This document shows, in pieces, positions 10,164 through 60,491 of a DNA stretch of 64,000 nucleotides (positions within the stretch are counted from its first letter, which is position 1; every line of letters starts with the position of its first letter). Below the pieces are notes generated by a model. The model was not told the DNA's origin, searched no databases, and saw only the letters and a program-made list of their open reading frames with translations. Source of the stretch: Candidatus Nomurabacteria bacterium. GTDB taxonomy: Bacteria > Patescibacteriota > WWE3 > UBA101185 > UBA10185. A program made the position numbers and the translations under genes. The stretch covers positions 363,118-427,117 of the forward strand of contig JACKGU010000001.1 in assembly GCA_020631855.1 (NCBI GenBank), given 5' to 3'.

Positions 10164-10239
10164 TGGTGGGTGATCCTGGGCTCGAACCAGGGACCACTCG
10201 TGTATAAGACGAGCGCTCTACCAACTGAGCTAATCACCC
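10164..10239 (-). tRNA. tRNA-Ile (anticodon UAU), CCA encoded
   Basis: A manual fold gives acceptor GGGUGAU/AUCACCC, a GCUC/GAGC D-stem, and an anticodon stem CUCGU/ACGAG with loop CUUAUAC (anticodon UAU). The T-loop is UUCGAGC and the 3' end is ACCA. Confidence 0.8.
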
Positions 10240-21634: not shown

Positions 21635-21709
21635 TCCCCTGTAGCTCAATGGTAGAGCGCCCGGCTGTTAACCGGTAGGTTGGTGGTTCGAGTCCACCCG
21701 GGGGAGCCA
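21635..21709 (+). tRNA. tRNA-Asn (anticodon GUU), CCA encoded
   Basis: U1-A72 acceptor (UCCCCUG/CGGGGGA), D-arm GCUC-AAUGGUA-GAGC, anticodon loop CUGUUAA, T-loop UUCGAGU, and a G discriminator followed by CCA. Confidence 0.8.
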
Positions 21710-26807: not shown

Positions 26808-26930
26808 TTTTATAATTTCGTTACTAAAACTACTTACATAAGCTAGTAGATGTGGTTTACCCAACATGTTGGGCTTTGCAACGCAAAGAAGGTACGGCAA
26901 ACCACTTGCGTAAGCTGGCAGTGTTTAATA
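26808..26930 (+). repeat. copy A of 120-nt intergenic repeat family
   Basis: TTTATAATTTCGTTACT...AAGCTAGTAGATG...CCCAACATGTTGGG (perfect 14-bp palindrome)...GCAAACCACTTGCGTAAGCTGG. It sits between the stop of 26942..28624 and the start of 25408..26775. Confidence 0.6.
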
Positions 26931-34371: not shown

Positions 34372-34390
34372 TGGTGACCCCACGGGGAAT
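34372..34390 (-). repeat. 19-bp direct repeat of the tRNA-Glu 3' end (TGGTGACCCCACGGGGAAT)
   Basis: Identical to 34507-34525 (the tRNA-Glu 3' end including CCA) and lying 117 nt downstream of the tRNA. Confidence 0.55.
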
Positions 34391-34459
34391 AAGCAAAGCT
34401 TGCATTTGTCTTCGACAAAAGTCGAACCTAGCTTCGCTATAGCTCTCTCATACCAGCAG

Positions 34460-34486
34460 CATCACATGAACAAAAACCTCCACCTA
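34460..34486 (-). terminator. intrinsic terminator downstream of tRNA-Glu (CUCCACC-GGUA-GGUGGAG + GUUUUUGUU)
   Basis: 7-bp stem with a 4-nt loop, followed by a U-rich tract on the minus-strand transcript. Confidence 0.45.
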
Positions 34487-34506
34487 CCGGTGGAGAACTT
34501 TGTTCA

Positions 34507-34581
34507 TGGTGACCCCACGGGGAATCGAACCCCGATTTACAGACTGAGAACCTGCCGTCCTAACCGTTAGACGATGGGGCC
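34507..34581 (-). tRNA. tRNA-Glu (anticodon CUC), CCA encoded
   Basis: Acceptor GGCCCCA/UGGGGUC, D-arm GUCU-AACGGUUA-GGAC as in bacterial tRNA-Glu, anticodon loop UUCUCAG, T-arm CGGGG-UUCGAUU-CCCCG. Confidence 0.7.
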
Positions 34582-37884: not shown

Positions 37885-37943
37885 ACGGTCATTTTAACAG
37901 AATTACTCTAAAGATGCGAAAAACTACTTAAAGCAACTGAGAT

Positions 37944-38180
37944 TTATAATTTCGTTACTTAAACCTACTTACCCGAGCTAGTAGATGTAGTTTACCCAAC
38001 ATGTTGAGCTCTGCAAGGCAAAGAAATTACAGCAAACCACCTGCGTAAGCTGGTGATAGTTGATAATTTCGTTACTTAAACCTACTTACCCGAGCTAGTA
38101 GATGTAATTTACCCAACATGTTGAGCTCTGCAAGGCAAAGAAATTACAGTAAGCCACCTGCGTAAGCTGGTGGTAGTTGA
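37944..38180 (+). repeat. two tandem copies (period about 118 bp) of the 120-nt intergenic repeat family (copies B1, B2)
   Basis: 37944-38062 and 38064-38180 are about 95% identical to each other and about 80% identical to copy A. Confidence 0.7.
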
Positions 38181-38351: not shown

Positions 38352-38594
38352 ATGCTAAATAAAATAAAGGATCTACTTAAAATAGGAGATAAAAAATCTT
38401 GTTGCGGAGGGGCAAAAGACGATTGTTGCCAAAACCACGAGGATTCTTGTTGCGGCGGACATTGCTCGCCCGAGGACACAGAGAAAGGCTGCTGTTGCAA
38501 CGGTAACGGACAGTGCAATTGCTCTAAAGACGAATGCTGCTGCGAATGCAAAGAGGACGAAACTTGCGAATGTAAATGCCATACAATAGAATAA
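38352..38594 (+). CDS. Cys-rich small protein (19 Cys in 80 aa), metallothionein-like
   Basis: A GGGAGG RBS lies 8 nt upstream of the ATG. The sequence is SCCGG..DCCQNHEDSCCGGHCSP..GCCCNGNGQCNCSKDECCCECKEDETCECKCH. Confidence 0.55.
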   Translation: MLNKIKDLLKIGDKKSCCGGAKDDCCQNHEDSCCGGHCSPEDTEKGCCCNGNGQCNCSKDECCCECKEDETCECKCHTIE

Positions 38595-38640: not shown

Positions 38641-38735
38641 GAAAGTTGATAGCCGTAGTATCTCCGGATATACGGAAAGAGAAGGTACGAAGAAGTTAAC
38701 AAACTAGCTCGCCCGCGATATAATGTCGGGCACAT

Positions 38736-38809
38736 TGGGGGATCGTCTAATGGTAGGACACTGCACTCTGGATGCAGGAATTGGGGTTCGAATCCCTGTC
38801 CCCCAGCCA
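38736..38809 (+). tRNA. tRNA-Gln (anticodon CUG), CCA encoded
   Basis: U1-A72 pair (UGGGGGA/UCCCCCA), the Gln hallmark; D-arm GUCU-AAUGGUA-GGAC; perfect anticodon stem CUGCA/UGCAG with loop CUCUGGA; T-loop UUCGAAU; ends GCCA, as in E. coli tRNA-Gln. Confidence 0.8.
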
Positions 38810-38867
38810 AGGAAAATATCCCTAAGCCTGAGAGGTTTGCGGATGTTTTTCTTTAACGGTTTAGACA

Positions 38868-39341
38868 TTAAAGTTCTCTAATTGCTATTGCTTGAAAAAC
38901 TGAACTTTCAGAATATCCCCATGTTTGGTAACCGTGAATTTCTACTTTTTTATCTATGTATTTTTCTAAATCATAAAAGTCCTTGCTATTAGGTCGTAAC
39001 ACTTGTATTTTATCAATATATAATGGCAATCCGGAAGCATTATTCATCAATAGATAGGGCTCCTCAAAATATATCCAGTACCAATAATCTCCCAACTCCA
39101 GCTCATCAGGAATATTTTCTTTTTTTAACGTGCCTTGTAAAAAAATTGGATTATCTTCCCCAGTAAATTCTATAACTCTATCTTGATCTTTTTCAACGTC
39201 CTTTGTAAAAGAGTCATTAACTACCGAGTATTCAATCTGCTTATTTATCTTTTTGATGGAATAAAAATAATAAGCAAATAAAATATTTATAAATAACGAA
39301 AGTGCTAATAAAGTAGATAAATATTTTTTAAACATAAACAT
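38868..39341 (-). CDS. hypothetical membrane-anchored protein
   Basis: 157 aa with an N-terminal TM helix. Confidence 0.45.
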   Translation of the reverse strand: MFMFKKYLSTLLALSLFINILFAYYFYSIKKINKQIEYSVVNDSFTKDVEKDQDRVIEFTGEDNPIFLQGTLKKENIPDELELGDYWYWIYFEEPYLLMNNASGLPLYIDKIQVLRPNSKDFYDLEKYIDKKVEIHGYQTWGYSESSVFQAIAIREL

Positions 39342-39434
39342 ATTTTACTACTTTATGGCAGTACGAAATAGCATATATGTGCAATTGACTTAAAAAATGG
39401 GTTTATATTTTTATAAGTACCAATTTGTGACCAT

Positions 39435-39512
39435 ACGGCCAGCCATATAGCCTTAAGAAACTACGTACAAGATAGAACTACCTTTTTGATGCTAGACCCA
39501 TATGCTCAGCCA
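39435..39512 (+). repeat. cassette-junction repeats J1a (39435-39478) and J1b core CTAGACCCATATGCTCAGCCA (39492-39512)
   Basis: J1a matches 44646-44687 (ACGGCCAGCCATATA...AGAAAC...ACA.GATAG). J1b matches the cores at 40455, 41168 and 43588. Confidence 0.55.
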
Positions 39513-39514
39513 GG

Positions 39515-39551
39515 AATTTGGCAATCAGCCTGAAGGGCTGGTTGCCAAATT
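39515..39551 (+). repeat. 16-bp near-perfect inverted repeat AATTTGGCAATCAGCC-tgaag-GGCTGGTTGCCAAATT
   Basis: 15 of 16 positions are complementary (one U-G in RNA); it lies between junction repeat J1b and the attR-like copy. Confidence 0.5.
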
Positions 39552-39640
39552 ACTTGTTGAGAGCGAAAGGATTCGAATGGCGCAGGCACGACGGTGCCGA
39601 GCCGAGGTCGGGCAAAAATTCAGCAGAATTTTATGCGTGA

Positions 39641-39661
39641 CCGAATCCCTGTCCCCCAGCC
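39641..39661 (+). repeat. exact 21-bp copy of tRNA-Gln 3' end (attR-like)
   Basis: Identical to 38789-38809. Confidence 0.7.
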
Positions 39662-39730
39662 AGGGTTTCTCCCTATAACAACAATCCCAAATATAGGCCA
39701 TCAGGTAATTCGAACTGATATAATGTTCTT

Positions 39731-40402
39731 ATGAAACTAATTTTGGGCGGAGGCGGGGATGAAAACACCTCCATACAATCACATAAACGCTTTTTTGATC
39801 TTCTGAAAAATTCTAGAAAAGTCTTATACATCCCAATAGCAATTCTTTCAGATAAATATACACCAGAAGGGTGCCTTTCTTGGTTTTCAGGAGCTTTTAA
39901 AAATATGGGAGATCTAGATATCGAAATGGTCACTAGATTTGAGGATATCGATAGTGACTTAGGCAAGTATGCTGGTATCTATATTGGTGGTGGAAATACC
40001 TATAAGTTACTTCATGAGATGAAAAAATCTGGTATCGATGAGAGATTAGATACATATAAGGGAGTAGTCTATGGGGGCAGTGCTGGAGCTATCATATTTG
40101 GTAAAGATATATCTACTGCTGAACATGCGGATATAAATAATGTTGGTTTAAAAGATATTTCTGGGTTAAATTACCTAAAAGGTTATAACTTGTGGTGTCA
40201 CTATAAAGAAGAAGATATTCCCCTAATAGATCGGCTAGTAGAAAAGGGGCAGAAAATTATATCTATTGAGGAAGATTCGGCAATTTACATCAATAATACA
40301 CATATAATTCAAAGTATTGGTAATAATGTAAGAATTCATATACAAGGAAAAGATACTTTCAAACTTTTACCAAAAGAACAGTTCGAACTTCTTCCCCGAT
40401 GA
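39731..40402 (+). CDS. peptidase S51 (dipeptidase E/cyanophycinase-like) family protein
   Basis: IYIGGGNTYKLL and VYGGSAGAIIF (Ser nucleophile) align with the PepE motifs IIVGGGNTFQLL and IGWSAGA. Confidence 0.7.
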   Translation: MKLILGGGGDENTSIQSHKRFFDLLKNSRKVLYIPIAILSDKYTPEGCLSWFSGAFKNMGDLDIEMVTRFEDIDSDLGKYAGIYIGGGNTYKLLHEMKKSGIDERLDTYKGVVYGGSAGAIIFGKDISTAEHADINNVGLKDISGLNYLKGYNLWCHYKEEDIPLIDRLVEKGQKIISIEEDSAIYINNTHIIQSIGNNVRIHIQGKDTFKLLPKEQFELLPR

Positions 40403-40454
40403 ACAACCAAATGGCCTGGATACGCATCGTACAGGATAGAACCCTATTTTAGTA

Positions 40455-40500
40455 CTAGACCCGCATGCTCAGCCAAATATCCTGGAGAAACTGTGAATGG
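40455..40500 (+). repeat. cassette-junction repeat J2: core CTAGACCCGCATGCTCAGCCA + tail AATATCCTGGAGAAACTG
   Basis: The core is shared with J1b, J3 and J6; the tail is shared with 42961-42985 and 44659-44687; it is flanked by the inverted pair CAGGATA/TATCCTG. Confidence 0.6.
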
Positions 40501-40522
40501 GATATAGTGATATTATAATATC

Positions 40523-41158
40523 GTGAAAGAATTCGAGAACATAAAAAAATATATAGAATTTATTAACTCATTAGATTTAACTTTCGATAAAAATCCGGAA
40601 GAATATGGGTACAAAAACCCAGTAATACTCTTGATGGACGCAACCCTTTCAATAAATAGACAGTACAACAAATTTGTTCTTCCAAGAATTGAATATTTTA
40701 AACAGAGTTTTCCTAATATAAATACTCTTGAGAAACTTAATAATTTGATAAAAGAGACGGGTATAAATGACTTCGAAAACGTGTGGAATTATAATCATCC
40801 TAAGAGGGTGGAAATATTACAAAACCTAGCTAAGTTTTTTCTCGAATATAAAACTGAAAATTCTATCAAGGATGATTTAGAAAGTATGAAACATTGGGCT
40901 AAGAGTGTAGATATAAATTCTGGAAAAATATTACCAATAGATGGAATGGGATTTGCAACAAGCCAATATATAAGAAAGATGTTAGGCGTTGATTCTGTGA
41001 AACCAGATGTTCATATAAAAAGATCTATTATTGAAGGGATAGGAGAAAAAATGTCTGACAAAAAAACTGTGATGTTTATAGAAATTGTTGCAAAGGAAAT
41101 GGGTATTACTCCAACAGCTCTAGACCATGCTATTTGGAAACATTACTCCTTGAAATAA
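40523..41158 (+). CDS. HhH-GPD-like (DNA glycosylase superfamily) protein
   Basis: GMGFATSQYIRKMLGVDSVKPDVHIKR resembles the helix-hairpin-helix Gly/Pro-rich loop plus Asp of HhH-GPD proteins. It has a GTG start. Confidence 0.4.
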   Translation: MKEFENIKKYIEFINSLDLTFDKNPEEYGYKNPVILLMDATLSINRQYNKFVLPRIEYFKQSFPNINTLEKLNNLIKETGINDFENVWNYNHPKRVEILQNLAKFFLEYKTENSIKDDLESMKHWAKSVDINSGKILPIDGMGFATSQYIRKMLGVDSVKPDVHIKRSIIEGIGEKMSDKKTVMFIEIVAKEMGITPTALDHAIWKHYSLK

Positions 41159-41167
41159 CGTTTGGTG

Positions 41168-41188
41168 CTAGACCCGTATGCTCAGCCA
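41168..41188 (+). repeat. cassette-junction repeat J3 core CTAGACCCGTATGCTCAGCCA
   Basis: 20 of 21 identical to the J2 core; it lies about 40 nt upstream of the RyR gene ATG. Confidence 0.6.
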
Positions 41189-41229
41189 ATAGCTTGGAGA
41201 ATATAACTCTATATCTGTATAATTACGGA

Positions 41230-41445
41230 ATGAATTTCAACAAAGAGATGTTAGAAAGACTTGCCGAACTAGAACATAGACAATGGGCCACTTGGATGAA
41301 GTATATGCTAAAAAATCTTACATCTGAAAATATAGAAAAGTGGAAAAAGCAAGCTGATACCCCATACAAAGATTTAACCGAAAAGGAAAAGGACAGCGAT
41401 AGAAATTGGGCTAAAGAAGTGCAAAAAATACTTAATGGTTCTTGA
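41230..41445 (+). CDS. small RyR-domain protein
   Basis: LAELEHRQWATWM...TPYKDLTEKEKDSDR matches the bacterial RyR (ryanodine-receptor-like) domain pattern EHERW...PY..L.E.EK..DR. The start is taken at the internal Met MNFNKEM. Confidence 0.45.
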   Translation: MNFNKEMLERLAELEHRQWATWMKYMLKNLTSENIEKWKKQADTPYKDLTEKEKDSDRNWAKEVQKILNGS

Positions 41446-41462
41446 CCTGCTTGCTCAGCCAA
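41442..41462 (+). repeat. cassette-junction repeat J4 (TTGACCTGCTTGCTCAGCCAA)
   Basis: Shares GACC...GCTCAGCCA with the other cores; it lies 45 nt upstream of the HD gene. Confidence 0.5.
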
Positions 41463-41506
41463 GGCAGTAACTATTATTTTTAATAGTAGTAACGTAAAAT
41501 ACTCTT

Positions 41507-42142
41507 ATGAATACTTCGGAAATAGTCTCGTTCATTACATTCTCTGAAAAATTAAAAAAATTAGAAAGATTTAAAGGACAATTCTACTGGAAGGACTATC
41601 CCACGTTACCAAGATATGAGTCTGTAGCGGATCATTCTTGGCGATTATCTTTATTGATTTACGCTTTTGAAAAAAAACTTTCGCACCCCATAAATATTGA
41701 AAAAGCACTAAAAATGACAATTATTCACGATTTACCTGAAATTATTTCTGGCGATGATAGTCCAATGGGAAAAGATGGAACTGGTAAAGATTCGCATGCC
41801 TATAACGGTGATGTTCAAAAACAAAGACACGAAAGAGAAAAAGATGCTGCAAAGGAACTGTTCAGCAAACTTCCAAAAGATATTGGTGAGGAAATGTTTA
41901 ACTTGTGGGTTGAATATGAATCTCAGGAATGTTTTGAAGCAAAAGTAGTTAAAGCACTAGATAAAATTGAATGCTTGCTACAAGTACTTGAATATAGTAA
42001 TGGGAATTTGTTTAAAGACCATCTGGAATTTAGTATTAGTTATGGATTAAAACATGCGAATATCGATCCTGCCATTAAAAGCTTTGGGGAAGAAATTGCT
42101 CAAGAGATGAGAAATTCTTATAAGGAATACGTAAATGAATAG
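41507..42142 (+). CDS. HD-domain phosphohydrolase (YfbR-like 5'-deoxynucleotidase family)
   Basis: ESVADHSWRLSLL (H motif) and HDLPEIISGDD (HD motif) align with E. coli YfbR ENVSEHSLQVAMV and HDASEVLTGDL. Confidence 0.65.
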   Translation: MNTSEIVSFITFSEKLKKLERFKGQFYWKDYPTLPRYESVADHSWRLSLLIYAFEKKLSHPINIEKALKMTIIHDLPEIISGDDSPMGKDGTGKDSHAYNGDVQKQRHEREKDAAKELFSKLPKDIGEEMFNLWVEYESQECFEAKVVKALDKIECLLQVLEYSNGNLFKDHLEFSISYGLKHANIDPAIKSFGEEIAQEMRNSYKEYVNE

Positions 42143-42297
42143 TGGGTGAAAGTTTAAATAGCGTACAGTACGAACGGCCAAATTGAAAAAACACTACTTT
42201 CCTTTATAACCGCAAGTTCCAAAACACGCTAAAAAACGTAGGCCAATTTGAACTTTGGAACTTGCAGAATGTATGCAATAAAATGGTATCGTCTCTT

Positions 42298-42762
42298 CTA
42301 AAAGAAAAAACCTTTGGATTTAGATTTTAAGAAGTGTTTTAATTCGATCAAAAACTCTCGCACTTCTATAGGAAGCCTGCTTAATCCGTTTGTTTTTCCA
42401 TCCAACCAAGATATATATTTCTCATAAGAGACTTTACTATCAATGTAATAACTGTTTTTTGCTAACAAAGTATTTATTACAGGTTGAATTTTATCCATTA
42501 AGTAAACGGATTCAGATTCTGGGCTACTCTTGTTCTCATACTCTTCAATAGAAGTGTGTAAACCGTCAAAATCTTGCCATCTCTCTTTTATATTATTAAG
42601 TGCTTCCTGTTCTCTATCGAATTTATTGTTCTTTTGCTCTTCTGATGCGTTATGAGAGTCCGTATCACCGGCTTGAATTTCTACTAAATCATGCGTAAGG
42701 GCATACTTAAAGACCTTTAATAAATCCAAATTTAGGTTAAATTTCTCAATAAGATACAGCAA
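42298..42762 (-). pseudogene. degenerate HD-domain (YfbR-like) paralog lacking the N-terminal His motif
   Basis: It retains LTHDLVEIQAGDTDS (the HD motif), but the upstream region has an in-frame stop where the ExxxEHS motif should be. The ORF has a TTG start. Confidence 0.35.
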
Positions 42763-42943
42763 GTAATCGCTAGTTTGAAACTATGCTCTGGGTCTGTTTC
42801 CATTTGGTCTCGTCCACGGATAGGTGCTTTTCGATATATCTGGTCAAAATCATGTAAATAATCAATGAGGGAACAAAGCGCGTTATGTTATCCATATCAT
42901 GATTAAAACATTCCACAACTTATAAAAGTTCCAACCAAATCTC

Positions 42944-42985
42944 AACTGCCCAGTCATTAAACCTGGAGAAACTGCTTACAGGATA
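42944..42985 (+). repeat. cassette-junction repeat J5 (…CCCAGTCATTAAACCTGGAGAAACTGCTTACAGGATA)
   Basis: The tail is identical to the J2 and J7 tails; the core is degenerate. Confidence 0.5.
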
Positions 42986-42989
42986 ATAA

Positions 42990-43541
42990 TTATCTCCTTC
43001 TAGCCACTAAAATTTCACGTTCTTGGTTCATACCTGATTTAGTTCCACCTATTACTTTGTCGTGTAACAACACATCCCAGGATTTATATTTATTGACTAG
43101 ATAGTCTCCAACAAAATAGCATTTTTTATGGTTAATATTAAATTCACCTTGGTCTGTAAAACCAACGATTATATTTATTCCATCTGTTGCAGTATGTTCC
43201 TGTATCGAATCTATGAGTTTGTCTCCGGACGAAAGTTTTAAAAAATGAAAAGTAAAGAAGGAAATGATGTCATCATAAGTGTCGTTTATAATATAGTTAT
43301 TAAGATCTGCTCCTTCGGTATGTATGTTTAGATTGTTTTCATTTGCAAATATTTTTAAGTCATTAAGCGCTGCGTTATCCTTATCTATATTCATAACTTC
43401 AAACCCATTTCTTGCAAGAAAAATTGCGTTTGTTCCATCTGATCCGCCTAAATCCAAAACCTTTCCAGTCTTTAAATCAGCTAAATATTTTACCAATAGT
43501 TTATTAGGCTCCTTTGACCATCGTGAATTAATCACAGTCAT
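42990..43541 (-). CDS. class I SAM-dependent methyltransferase (TehB-like)
   Basis: Motif I VLDLGGSDGTNAIFLARNGFEV; 183 aa. Confidence 0.65.
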   Translation of the reverse strand: MTVINSRWSKEPNKLLVKYLADLKTGKVLDLGGSDGTNAIFLARNGFEVMNIDKDNAALNDLKIFANENNLNIHTEGADLNNYIINDTYDDIISFFTFHFLKLSSGDKLIDSIQEHTATDGINIIVGFTDQGEFNINHKKCYFVGDYLVNKYKSWDVLLHDKVIGGTKSGMNQEREILVARRR

Positions 43542-43587
43542 ATCTTTCAGTTTAACATCAATTTCTACACTAGATAATAAGTTGGTT

Positions 43588-43619
43588 CTAGATCTATTTG
43601 CTCAGCCAGTGTTTTCTCC
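43588..43619 (+). repeat. cassette-junction repeat J6: CTAGATCTATTTGCTCAGCCAGTGTTTTCTCC
   Basis: Core plus CAGCCAGTGTTTCTCC, which matches the attR flank CAGCCAGGGTTTCTCC at 39656-39671 at 15 of 16 positions. Confidence 0.6.
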
Positions 43620-43682
43620 TTGTCAAAACAACATAAAACAACCCATACCCAATAGAGATTAGAACTAAGGTATACTTTATGT

Positions 43683-44612
43683 ATGGAAAATAACTTTACC
43701 GACTTTCTAATAGAATTAACAAATATCTCACCTAGACGAGGTATTAACGAACAAAAAGCAGCCCAATCAATTAAAAAATATTTAACAGAAGCAGGTGTTG
43801 ATTTTACTACTCAAGAATTTGAAACGATAATCCCTGATATAAAAAAAGCTGAATTATATGCTGATGGTGAAAAAATTCCTTGTTTAGGAGCATCCTTTGT
43901 TAGCGGACATATAGACAACAAAGCAACTATAGTTAATGCAACAGGACCTAATGTGCAAAATCCCATGATAATTTTTAATCCGGTGTCGTTAGGTGTGTGT
44001 TTACAACAGTTTAAAAAATACCCTGCAGTTACTATAAATAGAGATTCAGTTATTCAATTAATAATGGCCAACAATATCAAGGGTGAGGTTATTGTAGAAG
44101 ATTTTAAATTTATATCCCAAAATATTTTAGTCGGTAACACGAGTAATCCTGAAAATATTGTTTTTGCTCATTATGACTCTTTAATAGGTGGTGCCTTAGA
44201 TAATGGAGGAGCTGTAGATGTTTTATACCAATTAATAACTGATGATAAAAATTTATTAATCAATAATCTTTTTGTTTTTATTGGTAGTGAGGAAGAATCA
44301 ACTTCAAGTGAAGATGGCTTATGGGGTTTTAATATTTTCGACAAAAAATATCATGAATTACTATTAAGCTGTAAAAAGGTTATAGTTCTGGATGGAGTAG
44401 GTATCGGAAAACCCAAATTTGTGTCTAACCATATTGATTGGGTTTTTGGAGTAGACCGTGATATGGATAAAATTAGTCCTAAAGTACTTTGGATGCAAAA
44501 CGATCAAACAATAGTTATGAAATACTATCATTCTGACTTGGATACAATATCAATCTTAAAAACCGAACATCTAAATGAAGCTAAAGAATTATTATTAAGT
44601 GAAATAAGTTAA
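43683..44612 (+). CDS. M28-family metallopeptidase-like protein
   Basis: FAHYDSLIGGALDNGGAVDVL...FVFIGSEEES matches the H-x-D / D / EE metal-ligand pattern of M28/M20 peptidases. Confidence 0.55.
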   Translation: MENNFTDFLIELTNISPRRGINEQKAAQSIKKYLTEAGVDFTTQEFETIIPDIKKAELYADGEKIPCLGASFVSGHIDNKATIVNATGPNVQNPMIIFNPVSLGVCLQQFKKYPAVTINRDSVIQLIMANNIKGEVIVEDFKFISQNILVGNTSNPENIVFAHYDSLIGGALDNGGAVDVLYQLITDDKNLLINNLFVFIGSEEESTSSEDGLWGFNIFDKKYHELLLSCKKVIVLDGVGIGKPKFVSNHIDWVFGVDRDMDKISPKVLWMQNDQTIVMKYYHSDLDTISILKTEHLNEAKELLLSEIS

Positions 44613-44645
44613 ATTTGAGTAAATATAGTTCTAACTTCGCAAGCT

Positions 44646-44687
44646 ACGGCCAGCCATATATCCTGTAGAAACGGCTTACAGGATAGA
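44646..44687 (+). repeat. cassette-junction repeat J7 (ACGGCCAGCCATATATCCTGTAGAAACGGCTTACAGGATAG)
   Basis: Matches J1a and the J2/J5 tails; it contains the inverted pair TATCCTG...CAGGATA. Confidence 0.55.
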
Positions 44688-44823
44688 GATTCTTTATGGT
44701 ACTACATCCATATACCCAACCAAAGTGAACACATCCATGACCGTGATTTGTGAGAAGTCTTAAACATCTTTGTTATTTTGAAGTTTTGCTATTGAGATTC
44801 GGACCGTTTTTGGCTTGTGGTTA

Positions 44824-45597
44824 CTAATCGATCTTGAAAAGATAAAATTTATCTTTTAGTTGAAACCCATTTTTTATCAATCCTTTATAAGACCCTGTTG
44901 CTTCCTCGGCTATTGAAATGAATTTATTAACGCCATGATTTACACCGAAATTACATCGTTCGTCCACGAGTGCGGTGTGCAGCCCCCTTCTTCTGTGATC
45001 TTTTACCACACCTGCGTTATGAAGGTAGGCCAATCCCAAACTTGTATCTACTATAACTGATCCTGCACCTATAATTTCTTGTTTATGTTTTGTTACAATA
45101 GTTTCGAATTTGCGATCCTCTTGGCCTTCCTCTTTATATTTTTCATAAAGTCTACAATAATATGATTCCCCAGGCCAACCAGGATGACAGCTCTCAAGGA
45201 CTTTTATGACCTCATTTAAGCTATATTCATTTGACAGATAATAGTCTGTCGGAAGGTTTGGATTTGTCTGTTTCCCAATCTCTTTAACTAGGTAGCTATC
45301 AGAGCCCAATTTTTCACCTCCATATTTTTTCACGAAAGGTAAATAGTTATCTTTTAATTTTTCGTTAACATAAAAGGACAGCTTTTTCCCTTCCGATTTA
45401 CTCTTGTGTATGATCTGGTCGATTAAGGATATATTTAGCTTTTTAGGATCAGATAGTTTTGGAACAACAAAGTTGTACCACTCATCTTTAAAATGAGAGT
45501 CAACATAAAAAAAATCGTTATACTCTATAAAACGAATCGAATTTGTGCCAAGAAATATTCTCATAATATCGGTAAAAATCGCACTAAAGTAATTCAT
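44824..45597 (-). CDS. GNAT-family N-acetyltransferase domain protein
   Basis: The C-terminal IGAGSVIVDTSLGLAYLHNAGVVKDHRRRGLHTALV matches GNAT motif A (acetyl-CoA binding R/Q-x-x-G-x-G/A). Confidence 0.55.
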   Translation of the reverse strand: MNYFSAIFTDIMRIFLGTNSIRFIEYNDFFYVDSHFKDEWYNFVVPKLSDPKKLNISLIDQIIHKSKSEGKKLSFYVNEKLKDNYLPFVKKYGGEKLGSDSYLVKEIGKQTNPNLPTDYYLSNEYSLNEVIKVLESCHPGWPGESYYCRLYEKYKEEGQEDRKFETIVTKHKQEIIGAGSVIVDTSLGLAYLHNAGVVKDHRRRGLHTALVDERCNFGVNHGVNKFISIAEEATGSYKGLIKNGFQLKDKFYLFKID

Positions 45598-46338
45598 GAT
45601 GAAATTATACTATAACAGTAACTAATAATTAGAATTTTTAAATCCTCGAAGTAAAATGGTTTTGTTATGGATATAGGGCGGAAGTTCTTACGCAACATTT
45701 TTGACTCGGCCGAAAAAATCTATACTATTATACATATATGCATGGCTTTAAAACACATGAACTTAAGAGTTATTATAGAACACATATTAAGCTGGGCCTT
45801 AAGATTGCTATTTTTAGCCTTTTTATAATAACAAGCAACAACAAATCTTATGCCGCAGAAATTAACCTAACATCTTCAGAATATCACTTCAGGATAGACG
45901 GCGCTGCGGCAAAAGACTTCCTAGGCATTACAACATACCTTAATATTTGAATTTTATTCTTAAAATTAAGTTCCGGATATTTGCAAATAGTTGAAGCGAT
46001 TGAGTTACTTCTTGATAATAGCAACATAAAAACCAGGTGATTTCTCTTGCAGCATTTCCGCATGCCTAAAAGATACAAGCCTAGTGGTACAGATTTGGTT
46101 GGAAAAGATAAACATGCCATAGATAAAATGTTGAGCTTTAACGCCCCTGCTTACAATGAGAAAGAAACAATTTCCATATATAACACTTTAATCAATTCAA
46201 ATGTTACAAACTCGAATAGTCGCAAGAACAATAATGTAGAGGTAAAATAATACGTAGAAACTAATTAAATATACCTTTTTACAGTATCCTATTTCTTGAA
46301 AAATTATTCATAAATCGCCTTTTATAAAGTAGTATCTA

Positions 46339-47949
46339 GTGTATATGATATTTGCTATCAGTGTAGTGATTACTTGGGTATATTATTTTTTTCTTTTTCA
46401 GTCATGGGGAATTCTTCTATTACAAATACTCAATAGAAACCACACGTCTAGGAAAGAATACCCCGTGCTTCGTATAACCACCACAAACATTCTAGGCATG
46501 ATATTTCTGACAGCTTTAATTTCAGTATTAAATATTTTTTTTAAAATTGATTTTCCCATTAGACTGCTGGTATCTTTGAACATAGCTATTTTTTATAAAT
46601 CGCTGTATAGAACTGCGCTGATTATAATTTCCGAAATTAAATATTTATTAAAAAATAGACCAGTTTTATTTTGTTTCTTTACAATCCCTGTTTTTCTCCT
46701 CTTAACTTCCTTGTCAATGCCTATACTCACTTACGATACAGGTTTATATCATGCCCAAAGTGTCAAATATATTACTGAATTTAAATTAATTCTAGGATTA
46801 GCGAACATACATTGCAGGCTTGGGTTCAATTCGAATCTATTTGTATTACAAAGTGCCTTAGTAATTATAGATTATAAATACATTATCAATTCCTATTTGA
46901 TACTTCTACTTTCATTAAATACAGTGTTTCATGCAAATAAAAGGAATAAGTCGCTCTTTCTAGCCAATATAGCTTCGATTTGTTTTATATTTTTATTCTT
47001 TTTTTTCAACATAAATGGTTTATCTAATGATGTTTTCGCAACTATTTTAGGCGTCATTTTAATAGATCTTTTACTTACTAATGAAAAAGATTATTCATTT
47101 AATAACCAATTACCCATACTGATTACTTCCTATCTAATAACTATAAAGTTAAGCGCAGTAGTTTTCGGAATTTTAATAATTTATCTGCTGGTTAAAAATA
47201 GGAATAAACTTATATATGGCATGTTACTTTCCGCTTTAATAATTGCACCTTGGCTAGTTAGAAACATAATGATAAGCGGCTACCTTATTTTCCCATATCC
47301 TCAAGTTGATTTATTTAATTTGCAATATAAAGTTCCAAAAGAGACAGCTTATGAAACTTTTTACGATATTAAAAATTGGGCCAGAACAGGTACCACTATG
47401 TCAATGCCATTTATTGAATGGGTAAAGACATGGTCTTCAAATTTTCAATATATAGATATAGTAAGTCTTTTAAGTTTATCGCTGCTTTTTTTAGTTATTT
47501 TTCATATGATTATTTACAATAGAAAAAACCACGATTTTTTGATCTACTGTTGTATTGGAGTTGTTGGTATATTTTTTTGGTTCTTTACAGCACCCGATAC
47601 TAGATTTGGAATGGTATATTTTGTTTACTCAACTTACTTATCTACCTACTATATTTTCAAAAATATACGTAAAAGTAGCGATGTCAAAATAGTGTATACA
47701 TTAACTCTAGTTAGTTATTTTTTAATTTCATTAATATCAGATGTGGGCATATGGAATCAGTATAGAAATGAGAACATAAATTACTATCCTGAGGTATATA
47801 CGGAAAGTTTGAGTAATGGCATCTCCATAAATGTATTGGAAAAAGGAGATCAGTGCTGGTACACACCCCTACCATGCACTTACAAAGTAAATACTGGTTT
47901 AAAATTAATTGGTACCACACTAGAAGATGGATTTAAAATTGATAAATAA
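46339..47949 (+). CDS. AT-rich polytopic membrane protein (about 12 TM; possible GT-C/O-antigen-polymerase-like)
   Basis: 536 aa, extremely Phe/Ile/Leu/Asn-rich and very low GC, with a C-terminal soluble tail. The functional family is not resolved. Confidence 0.5.
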   Translation: MYMIFAISVVITWVYYFFLFQSWGILLLQILNRNHTSRKEYPVLRITTTNILGMIFLTALISVLNIFFKIDFPIRLLVSLNIAIFYKSLYRTALIIISEIKYLLKNRPVLFCFFTIPVFLLLTSLSMPILTYDTGLYHAQSVKYITEFKLILGLANIHCRLGFNSNLFVLQSALVIIDYKYIINSYLILLLSLNTVFHANKRNKSLFLANIASICFIFLFFFFNINGLSNDVFATILGVILIDLLLTNEKDYSFNNQLPILITSYLITIKLSAVVFGILIIYLLVKNRNKLIYGMLLSALIIAPWLVRNIMISGYLIFPYPQVDLFNLQYKVPKETAYETFYDIKNWARTGTTMSMPFIEWVKTWSSNFQYIDIVSLLSLSLLFLVIFHMIIYNRKNHDFLIYCCIGVVGIFFWFFTAPDTRFGMVYFVYSTYLSTYYIFKNIRKSSDVKIVYTLTLVSYFLISLISDVGIWNQYRNENINYYPEVYTESLSNGISINVLEKGDQCWYTPLPCTYKVNTGLKLIGTTLEDGFKIDK

Positions 47950-48185
47950 TCCCATTGAAATATATTTAATATTTTCAGATGTAATAAGGAAACTTTCAGA
48001 ATATAGTATGGGATTTTTTTAAACACTCCTACAAACAGGTACTACAACTAAACCTTATAGCTAGAGGATTGATAGGATTTTAAGCAGGCGTTGTAGTATA
48101 AACAATTGTTATTTGCGAATTAGTATTATAAGTCAAGAGATAATAACAAAAAAATATAGATAAAAAGGTAGTATATAATACTTAT

Positions 48186-48947
48186 ATGAAAAAGCTTGTA
48201 ATAGTTGCGGATGATTTTGGAACCCTACCCTCAATAAATAGCGGGATAAGTTTCTTATATAAAAATATACCGACACTTGAAATTTCAATGGTTACTAAAG
48301 CGAAATACTCAAAAGAGGCGGCAACCATGGTGAAAGAGCAAAGTATTCAAAACATTGGTATACATATGGAATTGTTAGGCTTAGAAGATCTAGGTAGACC
48401 AGTTACTGCAAAAGATTACATCAAACTATTTAAAGAAAAAACTTATGAGGAGATTGAAAAAATTGCTTCAGAGGAACTAAAGGCTTTTGAAACAACTATT
48501 GGCAAGCCACCAACACATATTACATCACACAAAGGAATTCATGGAAACTTCAAGCTCTTGAATTTTATTATTGCATATGCAAAAGAAAAAAATATCCCAA
48601 TTAGAAAACCAGTTACTGCTTTAAATGTTGAATTGGGAAACCAAAATTATGCGGCAGAGATTTCTTTATCCAGGGCTAAATTAAAATCAACAAATTATCT
48701 TTTTGCCCATATGTTGGGAAATAACCTAGACAAAATTAAAAACGCATTCATAACAGACCTTGAAAAAGTAAATGAGGGGGAGACAGCTGAAATAGTAATA
48801 CACCCTGCATTTTTTGATGAAAGATTATTAAATTATTCATCATTAAATTATTTACGCACAAGAGATATAGATTTATTTACAGATCAAAATTTTATAGACC
48901 AAATAAAAAAAATGGGGTTTAAATTTTGTACTTACAAACAAATATGA
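48186..48947 (+). CDS. YdjC/ChbG-family carbohydrate deacetylase-like protein
   Basis: N-terminal VIVADDFGTLPSINSGI matches the YdjC motif ADDFG..xxxNxGI. Confidence 0.6.
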   Translation: MKKLVIVADDFGTLPSINSGISFLYKNIPTLEISMVTKAKYSKEAATMVKEQSIQNIGIHMELLGLEDLGRPVTAKDYIKLFKEKTYEEIEKIASEELKAFETTIGKPPTHITSHKGIHGNFKLLNFIIAYAKEKNIPIRKPVTALNVELGNQNYAAEISLSRAKLKSTNYLFAHMLGNNLDKIKNAFITDLEKVNEGETAEIVIHPAFFDERLLNYSSLNYLRTRDIDLFTDQNFIDQIKKMGFKFCTYKQI

Positions 48948-49768
48948 ACACAAAAATAACAAAAAAAAGAGTGGTATTTACGCTACATGATTTTGGAAAG
49001 TCTTTCTCTGTAAACGATGGGATTGTGTTTGCAATGAATCATGCTGAAAACATAGCAACACAGTATTCATTATTACCTAACGGCATTGCAAGCAACCAAG
49101 CCGCGCAAATCGCAAGAGAAAGAACCGATCTGTCTTTTGACTTGTGTTTTACTTTTACCGATTTCAAACCAATAGGTAAAGGGTACAAAACACTAACAGA
49201 CTCAGATGGGTACTTCTTAAAAGCAAACACCGCACAATGGGACTTTTCTGTTTTAGACAATTATAATTCTTACGAGATAGAGAAAGAGATTGAAGAACAA
49301 TATGAGTGGTTTCTAACTAATGTAGGAAGAAAACCTACGGCGCTAACAACCCAGAAATCAGAACATGGGGACCCTAAGATTTTAATACCAATAACAGACC
49401 TTGCAAAAAAAGAAAATATTCCGTTAAGAACTCCGGCGTGGCAATGGTTTAGTAATTATGCGGCGCAGTCGTATGTGGAAGACCTTGGCTTGACATTCTC
49501 TAACAGTGTTTTTGTGGCAACCAAAGACTGGAAGGGCGAACATGGATATAGCTTGGAAGAAGATGTTGACTTACTGATATCTGATATAAAAAATACAGAA
49601 GGCATTTCAGAAATAGTTGTACTGGCTGGTTTTGTGGATCAGGAACTATTCGACATGAGTTCTGTAAGTTGGCAAAGAGGAGAATACCTTAATCTACTAG
49701 TAAGAAAGCCTGAAATCTTAAAAAGATACGCCACTGAGTTTGATATTATAAGTTATTCGAAAATATAG
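48926..49768 (+). CDS. divergent YdjC-family paralog (ADDFG changed to LHDFG)
   Basis: VVFTLHDFGKSFSVNDGIVFAM parallels the upstream paralog; the two genes are tandem and overlap. Confidence 0.45.
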   Translation: MYLQTNMNTKITKKRVVFTLHDFGKSFSVNDGIVFAMNHAENIATQYSLLPNGIASNQAAQIARERTDLSFDLCFTFTDFKPIGKGYKTLTDSDGYFLKANTAQWDFSVLDNYNSYEIEKEIEEQYEWFLTNVGRKPTALTTQKSEHGDPKILIPITDLAKKENIPLRTPAWQWFSNYAAQSYVEDLGLTFSNSVFVATKDWKGEHGYSLEEDVDLLISDIKNTEGISEIVVLAGFVDQELFDMSSVSWQRGEYLNLLVRKPEILKRYATEFDIISYSKI

Positions 49769-49961
49769 TTCCAGATTTTTTAACTGTCAGAAATCCTGCT
49801 GGTATTTTCTGGGCCATATAGTAGTAATTTATCTACTTGTATTCATAAGAGTCGTAAGTTAAGTCAAAAAGCAATAACTTCTCCATAGCTATACCTCTGG
49901 GGCACCATACTAAGTCAGATAAACATCGGGCCTCTGCCCTAAATTGTAGTGAAGGAGAGCA

Positions 49962-49998: not shown

Positions 49999-51834
49999 AT
50001 GCAAAAAAATGCAAAAGTTCTTTCCATTATAATTTCTGTCACTTTAATTTTTAATTTTTTCCTTCAGCCAATGGCGGCTTTCGAACAAAATACCAGCTTG
50101 GCCGACTCCGACGCATCTTTTGCAGCAAACGTTCTTGGAGATAATGTTGGGAATGCCCTATCAAGCGCAGGAGATGTAAACGGGGACGGTTATGACGACT
50201 TTCTATTAGGCGTACGTTACGGCGGGGATATAGAGGCCGGCGCAGTTTATCTGATACTAGGAAAGGCAGAGGGCTGGGCTATGGGAGCAGATATAGACGA
50301 TGCAGACGCTTCTTTTGAAGGCGAAGAAGCTTACGACAACGCTGGATACTCAATCGCCGGCGCAGGAGATGTAAACAACGATGGTTATGACGATTTCTTA
50401 ATCGGTGCCCCAGATGCTGATTCCGGACTAGGTAAAACGTATCTGATTCTTGGTAAAGAAGAGGGTTGGGCTATGGAAACAAGCCTAGCTGACGCAGACG
50501 CTTCTTTTGTGGGAGAGTACGAATCTGATTACTCGGGCTCCTCAGTCTCCGGAGCAGGCGATGTAAACAACGATGGTTATGACGATTTCTTAATCGGTGT
50601 CTCAGATGCTGATTCCGGAATAGGTAAAACGTATCTGATTCTTGGTAAAGAAGAGGGTTGGGCTATGGAAACAAGCCTAGCTGACGCAGACGCTTCTTTT
50701 GTGGGAGAGTACGAATCTGATTACTCGGGCTTCTCAGTATCCGGAGCAGGTGATGTAAACAACGATGGTTATGACGATTTCTTAATCGGTGCCCCAGATG
50801 CTGACTCAGAAACAGGAGAAACATATCTGATTCTTGGTAAGGACGAAGGCTGGGCAGCAGAAACAAGCCTGGCTGATGCAGACGCTTCTTTTGTGGGAGA
50901 GTACGAATCTGATTACTCGGGCTTCTCAGTCTCCGGAGCAGGTGATGTAAACAACGATGGTTATGACGATTTCTTAATCGGTGCCCCAGATGCTGACTCA
51001 GAAACAGGAGAAATATATCTGATTCTTGGTAAAGAAGGGAGTTGGGCTATGGAAACAAGCCTAGCTGACGCAGACGCTTCTTTTGAAGGCGAAGAAGCTT
51101 ACGACAGCGCTGGATACTCAATCGCCGGCGCAGGAGATGTAAACGATGATGGCTATGATGATTTTCTATTAGGATCTCCGTGGTATAACGAAACAGAGGA
51201 CGCATACGAAGGAAAATCCTATTTAATACTGGGCAAAGAAGGGGGTTGGGCTATGGAAACAAGCCTGGCTGACGCAGACGCTTCTTTTATAGGAGAATAC
51301 ATATACGATTATTCAGGGCAAGCAGTCTCGGGTGCAGGAGATGTGAACGGGGATGGCGCAGATGACATACTTATAGGGGCTCCCGGAGATGGTGAAGATG
51401 AAAACCTATACGGAAGGGTGTATCTACTACTAGGCACTCCTTCGGAAGAGGATCCCTCCGAGGACATAATAACTAACGATAACAACAACCCCACCCCAAA
51501 AAACACATTCAAAAAAGATGCCAAATGCCGATGGCAAGATCCTAACGAACTCACGTGGGTTTTGCTAGAACCAATGGACAAAAACGGAGTGTCAGGAATC
51601 AATCTTACATGGGTACAGTATGGTGCCGATAAAATTAATATTAAAATAGACGACGGCACAGGCAGCTACCCCTGGAATATAACAGAAATTTCAAACGATG
51701 GGCAAGAGTTTCTTCCAAACGTATTTGCATGGCAAAATATAAAAGTGCAGGCGGTGAACCACTGTAACAAAGGTAAGTGGAGCCAAGAATTTTCTTACAC
51801 TTCCTATCCTGAGGGCTGGTATAACGTTAAGTAG
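49999..51834 (+). CDS. FG-GAP repeat (integrin-alpha-like 7-bladed beta-propeller) secreted protein with C-terminal beta-sandwich domain
   Basis: Signal peptide; seven repeats of GDVN(G/N)DGYDDFLIGAP...YLILGKEEGW...ADADASF. Confidence 0.75.
   Translation: MQKNAKVLSIIISVTLIFNFFLQPMAAFEQNTSLADSDASFAANVLGDNVGNALSSAGDVNGDGYDDFLLGVRYGGDIEAGAVYLILGKAEGWAMGADIDDADASFEGEEAYDNAGYSIAGAGDVNNDGYDDFLIGAPDADSGLGKTYLILGKEEGWAMETSLADADASFVGEYESDYSGSSVSGAGDVNNDGYDDFLIGVSDADSGIGKTYLILGKEEGWAMETSLADADASFVGEYESDYSGFSVSGAGDVNNDGYDDFLIGAPDADSETGETYLILGKDEGWAAETSLADADASFVGEYESDYSGFSVSGAGDVNNDGYDDFLIGAPDADSETGEIYLILGKEGSWAMETSLADADASFEGEEAYDSAGYSIAGAGDVNDDGYDDFLLGSPWYNETEDAYEGKSYLILGKEGGWAMETSLADADASFIGEYIYDYSGQAVSGAGDVNGDGADDILIGAPGDGEDENLYGRVYLLLGTPSEEDPSEDIITNDNNNPTPKNTFKKDAKCRWQDPNELTWVLLEPMDKNGVSGINLTWVQYGADKINIKIDDGTGSYPWNITEISNDGQEFLPNVFAWQNIKVQAVNHCNKGKWSQEFSYTSYPEGWYNVK
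50173..51400 (+). repeat. seven tandem 192-bp intragenic repeats (FG-GAP blades); units 2-5 nearly identical at nucleotide level
   Basis: GATGTAAAC recurs at 50173, 50368, 50560, 50752, 50944, 51136 and 51340. Units 50368-51135 are more than 90% identical. Confidence 0.7.
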
Positions 51835-60413: not shown

Positions 60414-60491
60414 CGGGGTATAGCTCAGCTTGGCTAGAGCGCACGATTCGGGTTCGTGAGGCCGCAGGTTCGAATCCTGCTACCCCGACCA
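60414..60491 (+). tRNA. tRNA-Pro (anticodon CGG), CCA encoded
   Basis: Acceptor CGGGGUA/UACCCCG, D-arm GCUC-AGCUUGGCUA-GAGC, anticodon stem CACGA/UCGUG with loop UUCGGGU, T-arm GCAGG-UUCGAAU-CCUGC, ends ACCA. Confidence 0.8.

Follow-up and report, generated by a model that had tools for sequence, protein, structure and literature searches.

We examined a 64,000-nt stretch of DNA (hereafter the window) from a Candidatus Nomurabacteria bacterium (GenBank assembly GCA_020631855.1, contig JACKGU010000001.1, positions 363,118 to 427,117), focusing on a tRNA-Gln gene whose 3′ end is repeated exactly a short distance downstream. We find that this repeat belongs to an array of about 12 similar junctions. 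The array is probably the product of tandem accretion, in which cassettes that encode no recombinase were added one after another at the 3′ end of the tRNA gene by a serine recombinase acting in trans. Five kinds of observation carry this reading: the regular grammar of the junctions, their specificity for one strand and one locus, their conservation across species, the mosaic distribution of the cassettes, and a polymorphism between strains at the neighboring tRNA-Glu gene. A preliminary description of the same DNA had taken the repeat for the attL and attR sites of a single mini-islet. That ordinary signature was right in principle but was read at the wrong scale, the repeat being one junction of the array, and probably ascribed to the wrong class of enzyme.

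The array is anchored by an intact tRNA-Gln(CTG) gene with an encoded CCA (38736-38809, + strand; found by ARAGORN, Rfam tRNA score 58.4 bits). A promoter-like site, TTAACA-17-TATAAT, lies ahead of it (38696-38724, + strand) and agrees at 11 of 12 positions, a consensus match only. The 21-mer CGAATCCCTGTCCCCCAGCCA occurs exactly twice in the window. Copy 1 (38789-38809) is the last 21 nt of the tRNA, and copy 2 stands at 39642-39662, so that both reported copies are real and the second lies one base above the 39641-39661 first given for it. The two are 853 nt apart from start to start, with 832 nt intervening. No match was found in 100 dinucleotide-preserving shuffles, even at 3 mismatches, and a search of the window with the tail 16-mer at 3 mismatches returned nothing beyond the two known copies. 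Their identity ends inside the T-loop, where CGAAT is preceded by GGGGTT in the tRNA and by GCGTGAC in copy 2; the direct repeat thus begins at the CGAAT of the T-loop and spans 21 nt. The boundary is the same in two related loci (L044 and L073), and in a third (L030) it lies 18 nt from the end. We checked whether copy 2 is part of a second tRNA-Gln gene or of another known RNA. ARAGORN was blank, and Rfam (E up to 10) gave only chance-level microRNA matches on a nearby hairpin. As the preliminary description had supposed, copy 2 is not a second tRNA-Gln. The 21-mer was also found in 6 viral contigs of unrelated high-GC viruses, within full tRNA-Gln genes or 40-45-nt fragments. This indicates that the tail serves as an att site elsewhere, and it is uninformative on the WWE3-type lineage.

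Performing repeat searches, we found a box, (G)CTCAGCCA, that recurs between the genes from 39.4 to 44.7 kb and always on the + strand. When the tRNA tail (GGTTCGAATCCCTGTCCCCCAGCCA) was compared with a 25-nt arm of the junctions (GGTTCTAGACCGACATGCTCAGCCA), the two had equal length and frame and were identical at 16 of 25 positions. We call this arm the mimic arm; most junctions of the array carry it and not the exact tail, and its motif gave no match in viral contigs. Conservation ends right after CAGCCA, and four types of trailer start there: a terminator-like hairpin (T), an H type (TATATCCTGGAGAAAC...TACAGGATA), a G type (GGGTTTCTCCCTATAACAAC...) and an L type (GAATGGGCAC..GACCACGAAGCCTC...). 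The H trailer stands directly 3′ of tRNA-Gln in six relatives (L026, L031, L034, L073, L075 and L076), and the L trailer follows the tRNA-Gln tail or a mimic arm in six loci (L041, L056, L062, L049, L115 and L047). The H trailer has inverted arms of 9-12 bp around a spacer of 6-9 bp. We considered it as a structured hairpin and rejected this, since changes in one half are not compensated in the other (for example in L073 and L026); the halves are therefore treated as sequence motifs.

About 12 boxes ending in CAGCCA occur in the 64 kb of the window; all are on the + strand, and all fall between 38809 and 44722. The junctions, given as the last A of the CCA, are 38809, 39445, 39512, 39662, 40409, 40475, 41188, 41461, 42959, 43608, 44656 and 44722. 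Each interval between them holds one gene (two in a single case) or is an "empty" unit of 66-67 nt that consists of a trailer and an arm. The array sits in a low-GC tract (about 33% against about 40%) that extends to roughly 49.9 kb.

Two of these junctions, 39445 and 39512, fall between the copies of the 21-mer. Thus, the 853-bp interval at the tRNA-proximal end of the array is not one islet flanked by attL and attR but three units. The first (38810-39445, + strand, 636 nt) opens right after the CCA with a T-type trailer (38810-38852, + strand; -19.7 kcal/mol, z = -4.6), and a hairpin is likewise placed after the tRNA or an arm in L044, L045 and L073 and at tRNA-Glu. It carries the sole gene of the interval, ORF157 (open reading frame of 157 aa; 38868-39341, - strand), which has a hydrophobic N-terminus that forms an N-terminal membrane anchor and has no Pfam match; this is the small membrane-protein gene already noticed inside the pair, as were the repeats at the inner junctions. 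The ORF157 family comprises 16 clusters, both source-named ones being from Patescibacteria, and its homologues in other species occupy the same region between tRNA-Gln and TypA. A degenerate mimic arm, GTGACCATACGGCCAGCCA (39421-39445, + strand; weak profile match, E = 0.56), closes the unit, and this site is 84% identical over 43 nt to that at 44645-44687. The second unit (39446-39512, + strand) is an empty one of 67 nt, made of an H-type trailer (TATAGCCTTAAGAAAC...) and a mimic arm (GCTAGACCCATATGCTCAGCCA). It has 66-nt equivalents at 40410-40475 and 44657-44722 and in the unrelated contig L147. The third (39513-39662, + strand) is a 150-nt structured unit without an ORF (fold z = -5.8) that ends in the exact tail. 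It holds the hairpin described earlier as 16 bp, which is present at 39515-39551 and has 17 pairs, and a GC-richer spacer in which the T-arm recurs in inverted form as GGATTCG and pairs with CGAATCC of the tail. The architecture of this unit recurs in L044, L073 (twice) and L030, and at the tRNA-Glu of the window; the six tail-bearing units share it but have little sequence in common, except for L044 and L073. Checking the ORF list and Pfam, we found no integrase or recombinase gene between the two 21-mers, nor any in 38810-49900. Because none of the three units encodes a recombinase, we regard them as cis-mobilizable or fossil.

We next consider related genomes, which were found by scanning species-representative genomes with the neighboring NYN protein and belong to candidate division WWE3 and allied Patescibacteria. 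The synteny of tRNA-Gln(CTG), NYN, VanW and tRNA-Glu(CTC) is kept in about 33 such species. Downstream of tRNA-Gln the relatives are hypervariable, with 297 ORFs and few shared families, and almost none of the window's cassette proteins recur there in the 33 species. The distance from tRNA-Gln to TypA is 3.6 kb in L045 and 15.9 kb in the window, and the contigs of seven relatives end at tRNA-Gln or within about 55 nt past it. Searched with a profile of the mimic arm, the window and 80 related loci together returned 48 hits. In metagenomes, an exact-motif scan yielded 65 contigs, which hold 118 profile hits. All 166 hits are on the tRNA-Gln strand, none on the opposite one, and every mimic-arm hit lies downstream of the tRNA; such arms follow tRNA-Gln in 12 related WWE3-type genomes and the 65 metagenome contigs, 24 of which show tRNA-Gln (CTG in 21, TTG in 3) just upstream of the first arm. 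A dispersed repeat of the repetitive extragenic palindrome or miniature inverted-repeat transposable element type was rejected, since the hits are confined to one strand and the mimic arms to one type of locus.

The exact tail is duplicated in relatives as well, 155 nt past the tRNA in L044 and 915 and 1090 nt past it in L073; in L030, an 18-nt copy that differs by one mismatch lies about 105 nt past the tRNA. The junction of the tail with GGGTTTCTCCCTATAACAAC... follows tRNA-Gln directly in L063, lies 175 nt from it in L044 and 1110 nt in L073. A comparison with related genomes had been proposed at the outset, and it did reveal a tail-plus-trailer junction at varying distance from tRNA-Gln; the contigs of the same species all carry the insert, and no empty site was seen among them. 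Copy 2 of the window with the next 66 nt (39642-39728) is 92% identical to L044 and 89% to L073, unrelated genes follow in each genome, and the NYN proteins of these two relatives are only 62-68% identical to that of the window. The distal tail copy of L073 differs at two positions from its own tRNA and equals the version of the window. Tail copies thus move together with their units, and not every copy is a displaced tail of the host.

The inter-junction segments behave as cassettes. In a non-redundant set of 72 segments, the median length was 708 nt. Of the 57 cassettes that measure 200-1600 nt, 81% are filled to at least 60% by a single ORF (median coverage, 83%), and the orientation of the ORFs favors the tRNA strand by 41 to 16 (72% co-oriented, 28% opposite). 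Up to about 12 gene-sized units are found in an array. A cassette of the UDG family aligns from junction to junction at 70% nucleotide identity between L031, where it is at position 1, and L076, where it is at position 2. The contigs L136 and L147 share a block of 2965 nt (98% identity) that ends exactly at a junction, and both flanks are unrelated.

Entry of DNA at such junctions was seen at tRNA-Glu(CTC) (34507-34581, - strand), 4 kb from tRNA-Gln. This gene has an 18-nt duplicate of its tail 135 nt downstream (region 34372-34581, - strand), and the unit between consists of a terminator hairpin, a spacer and the tail. Three genomes with flanks that are 99.98-100% identical differ at the tRNA-Glu junctions (comparison loci L001, L179, L183 and L187). 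The window reads tRNA-Glu, the unit with its tail, and then core DNA. GCA_020427845.1 departs from the window right after the CCA of the duplicate, and its insert contains islands, a mimic arm (…GAGCTCACCA), a second copy of the unit and a second tRNA-Glu. Also in this insert, next to the gene of a type IV secretion coupling protein, is that of a large serine recombinase of 524 aa (L187, 1675-3249), which takes its C-terminus from the tRNA-Glu complement. In GCA_020631795.1, a type IV secretion element ends in a mimic arm of the tRNA-Glu tail joined to the unit, and identity with the window breaks inside the shared GGGTCACCA. These differences show that DNA enters at tRNA-tail junctions in this species, that the far end of the incoming elements bears a tail mimic, and that a serine recombinase belongs to at least one of them.

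We propose the following course of events. Units would be inserted repeatedly at the extreme 3′ end of tRNA-Gln, right after ...CAGCCA. Each unit would be an integrated element with its own trailer first and its own arm last, the arm being either the exact tail or the GGTTCTAGACCGACATGCTCAGCCA mimic. A new insertion would push the older units downstream, so that the newest one adjoins the tRNA. The crossover may take place within or at the edge of CAGCCA, or of TCACCA at tRNA-Glu; for the mimic arms it would have to lie 3′ of the divergent part, because otherwise the tRNA would at some stage have had a non-functional tail. The mimic arm would be the half-site borne by the element (the P arm), and the junction of arm and trailer would be of the attR type. 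A large serine recombinase would be supplied in trans by conjugative or prophage-like elements. If units still move, several products of known sequence would be expected. An empty site would join GGGGTTCGAATCCCTGTCCCCCAGCCA to GGGTTTCTCCC, which can also be written as GGGGTTCGAATCCCTGTCCCCCAGCCA joined to GGGTTTCTCCCTATAAC. A circle of the 853-bp block would join TTTATGCGTGACCGAATCCCTGTCCCCCAGCCA to AGGAAAATATCCCTAAG, and circles of single units would join ...GTGACCATACGGCCAGCCA to AGGAAAATATCC and ...CATATGCTCAGCCA to TATAGCCTTAAG.

As for the enzyme, circumstantial evidence inclines us toward a large serine recombinase, that is, a protein with Resolvase, Recombinase and Zn-ribbon domains. 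In L078, L069, L031, L110 and L158, such genes or their relics are encoded opposite to the tRNA, and their 3′ ends extend over the junction into the tRNA or the arm, from which the C-termini are read (...WLGGRDSNP from the tRNA complement, ...SIWLSM from the arm). Others stand inside the array in L161 and, at full length, just past the L-type trailer in L041 and L115; from the latter two, the L trailer may be the left end of a family of recombinase-bearing elements. Within the window, an intact recombinase of 537 aa (60434-62047, - strand; region 60414-62047) overlaps the last 58 nt of tRNA-Pro(CGG), with its C-terminal 19 codons read from the tRNA complement; a MerR-like gene is next to it, and DUF7380/EMARD_N genes come further on in L106. 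A relic of 425 aa (21668-22945, - strand; region 21635-22945), with Recombinase and Zn-ribbon domains and no catalytic Resolvase domain, overlaps the 3′ end of tRNA-Asn(GTT). Four tRNA genes of the window (Gln, Glu, Pro and Asn) thus have a tail repeat or a serine recombinase at the 3′ end. In a Pfam census of 75 array ORFs, Recombinase and Zn_ribbon_recom were the sole recombinase domains with at least 2 members among the top 25 of 121 families. A XerD-like tyrosine recombinase was found neither in the window nor in the related Patescibacteria loci nor in 0.42 Mb of metagenome arrays by a weak check with a single query, which matched only an unrelated gammaproteobacterial locus.

Several results weigh against tandem accretion by such an enzyme. 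The tRNA-Gln array is identical in all 14 independent contigs of the species, which come from several samples, and no empty site, circular form or rearranged array was seen among them; there is no evidence of current movement of this array. The window's tRNA-Gln array neither contains nor adjoins a recombinase gene, and only about 10 of roughly 100 arrays examined have a serine recombinase or relic within reach. The tRNA-Pro element has no repeat of the tRNA tail of at least 9 nt within 11.5 kb, other than one mismatched 9-mer at chance level, which indicates that long tail copies are not an obligatory product of serine recombinases. The search for tyrosine recombinases was a weak one, given that one query and a census read to the top 25 of 121 families, and the geometry of the inverted arms of the H trailer also fits the core site of a tyrosine recombinase. 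Finally, the sites in which an arm or the tRNA meets an H trailer share their right half, unlike the classical asymmetry of attP and attB of large serine recombinases.

The alternative that survives best, which we hold possible but doubtful, is an integron-like platform. Here the tRNA-Gln tail with its trailer would be a fixed acceptor comparable to attI, and the arm plus trailer of about 60 nt a cassette-borne site comparable to attC; a trans-encoded large serine recombinase, brought by conjugative or prophage-like elements, would insert, excise and shuffle single-gene cassettes, with the exact-tail 150-nt unit and the 66-nt empty units as the smallest cassettes, consisting of a site alone. 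The mostly co-oriented single-ORF cassettes fit such a scheme, and so do the 66-67-nt units, which amount to one permuted site each and were found in two organisms. Between species, the cargo is far less conserved than the arms, the same cassette occupies different array positions, a shared block ends exactly at a junction, and the G trailers put a promoter-like box just ahead of unrelated genes. Against it, no recombinase gene is linked to the array, no free or circular cassette was seen, and the array does not vary within the species; the decay of larger elements, with selection retaining useful genes, could look alike. Moreover, the sites do not fold like attC: the arm-plus-trailer sites and the 67-nt unit gave fold z-scores of 0.18, -1.43, 0.98, -1.64 and -0.18, the last being that of the 67-nt unit. 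Since IntI is also absent, we rejected an identity with integrons, and the analogy is one of function and not of homology.

It is unlikely that the interval is a single mini-islet of 0.83 kb placed by a conventional tyrosine integrase, with the 21-mers as attL and attR. The geometry of the repeat is typical of tDNA islands, and it is also found in the ssrA islands of Dehalococcoides (PMC3146451). The GC content of the interval is low (25-35%), and the position of the tail with its G trailer at the tRNA (L063) or variably far from it (L044, L073) is consistent with a displaced original tail. However, the two inner junctions give three units whose types recur independently elsewhere, the tail copy of L073 equals the version of the window and not that of its host tRNA, no integrase lies in the interval, and no tyrosine recombinase was found by the single-query check in the 0.42 Mb of arrays, the window or the related loci. 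What remains of integrase-mediated insertion is an att-type junction and a site-specific entry at the 3′ end of the tRNA; a tyrosine integrase is unsupported.

A reading without any recombination, in which the boxes are signals in RNA (tRNA-like elements of 3′ processing or stability, or terminators) or duplications by replication slippage, is very improbable: all boxes do lie on the tRNA strand, the 150-nt unit and the post-CCA hairpin are strongly structured and the pairing of the tail co-varies (GGGATTTG with CAAATCCC in L073, GGATTCG with CGAATCC in the window), but 28% of the cassette genes, and 5 of the 11 in the array of the window (38868-45597), are on the strand opposite the boxes, a lone 25-nt 3′ fragment cannot fold like a tRNA, the 67-nt units have no significant structure, conserved boxes hold unrelated cargo in different species, and, as a strong argument, near-identical strains differ at the tRNA-Glu junctions by kilobases of foreign DNA with recombinase and conjugation genes.

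Downstream of the interval, the array of the window continues on the + strand as follows. Copy 2 is followed by a G-type trailer (39663-39730; GGGTTTCTCCCTATAACAAC...TGATATAAT), in which an extended -10-like box (TGATATAAT, 39716-39724) stands 6 nt ahead of the ATG of a Peptidase_S51 gene; this spacing implies a leaderless or nearly leaderless transcript. Judged by its sequence, the box may act as a promoter, and the same box occurs in the conserved G trailer of L044 ahead of an unrelated gene. The cassette of the peptidase (39731-40409; gene at 39731-40402) ends in a degenerate arm at junction 40409. It is followed by a 66-nt empty unit with an H-type trailer and a mimic arm (40410-40475, junction 40475) and by a cassette with an H-type trailer, ORF211 (40523-41158, no family) and a mimic arm (40476-41188, junction 41188). 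A small ORF with a RyR domain and a mimic arm make up the next cassette (41189-41461, junction 41461). The cassette at 41462-42959 holds two HD-domain ORFs, at 41507-42142 (+) and 42298-42762 (-), and closes with a degenerate arm (GCCCAGTCA) at junction 42959. The shorter HD-domain ORF (154 aa, - strand) is followed by a 48-aa ORF fragment (42770-42916), and the whole stretch, 42298-42916, resembles an HD-domain gene that has been truncated or split and lies opposite the intact one at 41507-42142. Then come a cassette with an H-type trailer, a TehB-like methyltransferase gene (42990-43541, -) and a mimic arm (42960-43608, junction 43608) and one with a G-like trailer, an M28-like peptidase gene (43683-44612) and an arm (43609-44656, junction 44656). 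A 66-nt empty unit with a degenerate arm, CCCAACCA (44657-44722), brings the last recognisable junction, 44722.

The rest of the low-GC tract (44723-49900; 29-34% against about 40%) has a GNAT gene, a membrane protein gene and two YdjC genes without recognisable arms; this DNA, which separates the array from the TypA flank, may be older or have been acquired in another way. The gene of an FG-GAP repeat protein (49999-51834), with 6-7 tandem copies of a 192-nt repeat that are 74-100% identical, marks the boundary where the GC content returns to about 42-45%. On the other side of the array, between the NYN gene and tRNA-Gln, an 80-aa ORF (38352-38594) contains 26 cysteines in CC, CCC, CxC and CxxC runs; it looks metallothionein-like and has no Pfam family. 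Upstream of this ORF is a 117-nt tandem repeat (37943-38176) in two copies of 96% identity. It has no Rfam match and is single-copy in the conspecific contigs L003, L004 and L011, and a third copy of 77% identity lies 11 kb off, at 26808-26924. Elsewhere in the window, a tRNA-Ile gene (10164-10239) has the anticodon TAT (UAU), which is uncommon in bacteria. The window itself is identical to contig JACKGT010000005.1 of GCA_020631805.1, a metagenome-assembled genome of Patescibacteria labeled Candidatus Nomurabacteria at NCBI. The organism is present in samples SRR14234115, SRR14234051, SRR23493589-91, ERZ27248703, ERZ27257475 and JGI 3300010350.

The bacteria of the candidate phyla radiation (CPR, or Patescibacteria) have tiny genomes, and to our knowledge little has been described about how they gain genes. 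A search of the full-text literature on serine-recombinase integrative elements in CPR/Patescibacteria returned nothing relevant. The locus studied here is a lineage-wide hotspot at which gene-sized units pile up behind one tRNA gene, and the strain insertions at tRNA-Glu tie this type of junction to conjugative elements with serine recombinases. If the cassettes are individually mobile, they would represent a second, integron-independent route to a gene-cassette array, and they would offer natural pairs of a large serine recombinase and a tRNA-tail target, which are of interest to genome engineering. Should they be no more than products of decay, the locus would still illustrate clearly how DNA accretes at a tRNA gene in an uncultured phylum.

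The closest match among known systems is the group of ssrA islands of Dehalococcoides; cis-mobilizable elements (CIMEs) and tycheposon islands also come near. The ssrA islands have a repeat of about 20 bp starting from the T-loop and a reverse-strand large serine recombinase of about 540 aa at attL (McMurdie et al. 2011, PMC3146451). They lie in tandem in a hypervariable region, some lack an integration module, and an extra conserved sequence stands just upstream of the repeats (PMC3146451). The array shares with them a tRNA-like 3′ end as target, a repeat that starts in the T-loop, further conservation ahead of the repeats, tandem units in hypervariable DNA, and members without an integrase. 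In comparison, their target is tmRNA, while ours is tRNA-Gln and also tRNA-Glu, tRNA-Pro and tRNA-Asn, in a host from the Patescibacteria; they measure 10-30 kb, while we find mostly single-gene cassettes of 0.6-1.5 kb; and their repeat is exact, while here it is mostly a diverged 25-nt mimic, with 66-67-nt empty units in addition. Their six-gene integration module is absent here. The reverse-strand recombinase at attL is absent at the tRNA-Gln of the window; it is present at tRNA-Gln in L078, L069, L041 and L115, at the tRNA-Pro and tRNA-Asn of the window, and at conspecific tRNA-Glu. Compared with a tDNA island of the Islander type, the array has the intact tRNA and the displaced 3′ repeat but no integrase inside.

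CIMEs are flanked by att sites, have no genes for integration and transfer, accumulate at one site in a tandem arrangement beside integrative conjugative or mobilizable elements, and could be mobilized in cis or in trans (Pavlovic 2004; Bellanger 2011; review PMC5704250). The units of the array show this layout, being flanked by att-type sites, free of recombination and transfer genes, and placed in tandem at one site. The described CIMEs are decayed elements of several kb, usually one or two per site and mostly with tyrosine integrases, whereas here up to about 12 gene-sized units per array share an arm that is conserved across species. In the tycheposon islands of Prochlorococcus, 910 of 937 elements use a tyrosine recombinase, and replication genes are frequent (Hackl et al., bioRxiv 10.1101/2020.12.28.424599). 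Like the array, they are anchored at tRNA genes and contain full or partial tRNA repeats left by one integration after another, with older elements pushed inward and cargo outlasting the mobility genes. Their repeats are real tRNA fragments, unlike the conserved mimic found here, and the host and the families of elements are unrelated.

In integrons, the attC sites are imperfect inverted repeats (R′′-L′′...L′-R′) that fold in single-stranded form, and clusters of attC sites lacking an integrase are called CALINs. The array resembles both in its mostly single-ORF, co-oriented cassettes, the conserved site between them, the fixed anchor and the empty cassettes, and CALINs likewise have no integrase nearby. 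It is unlike integrons in having no IntI next to it, no imperfect palindrome that spans the site, no significant single-strand fold, a tRNA gene as anchor, and an association with large serine recombinases. What is distinctive here is the conserved arm that mimics the tRNA tail, the gene-sized units, and a tRNA-Gln anchor that is common across a CPR lineage.

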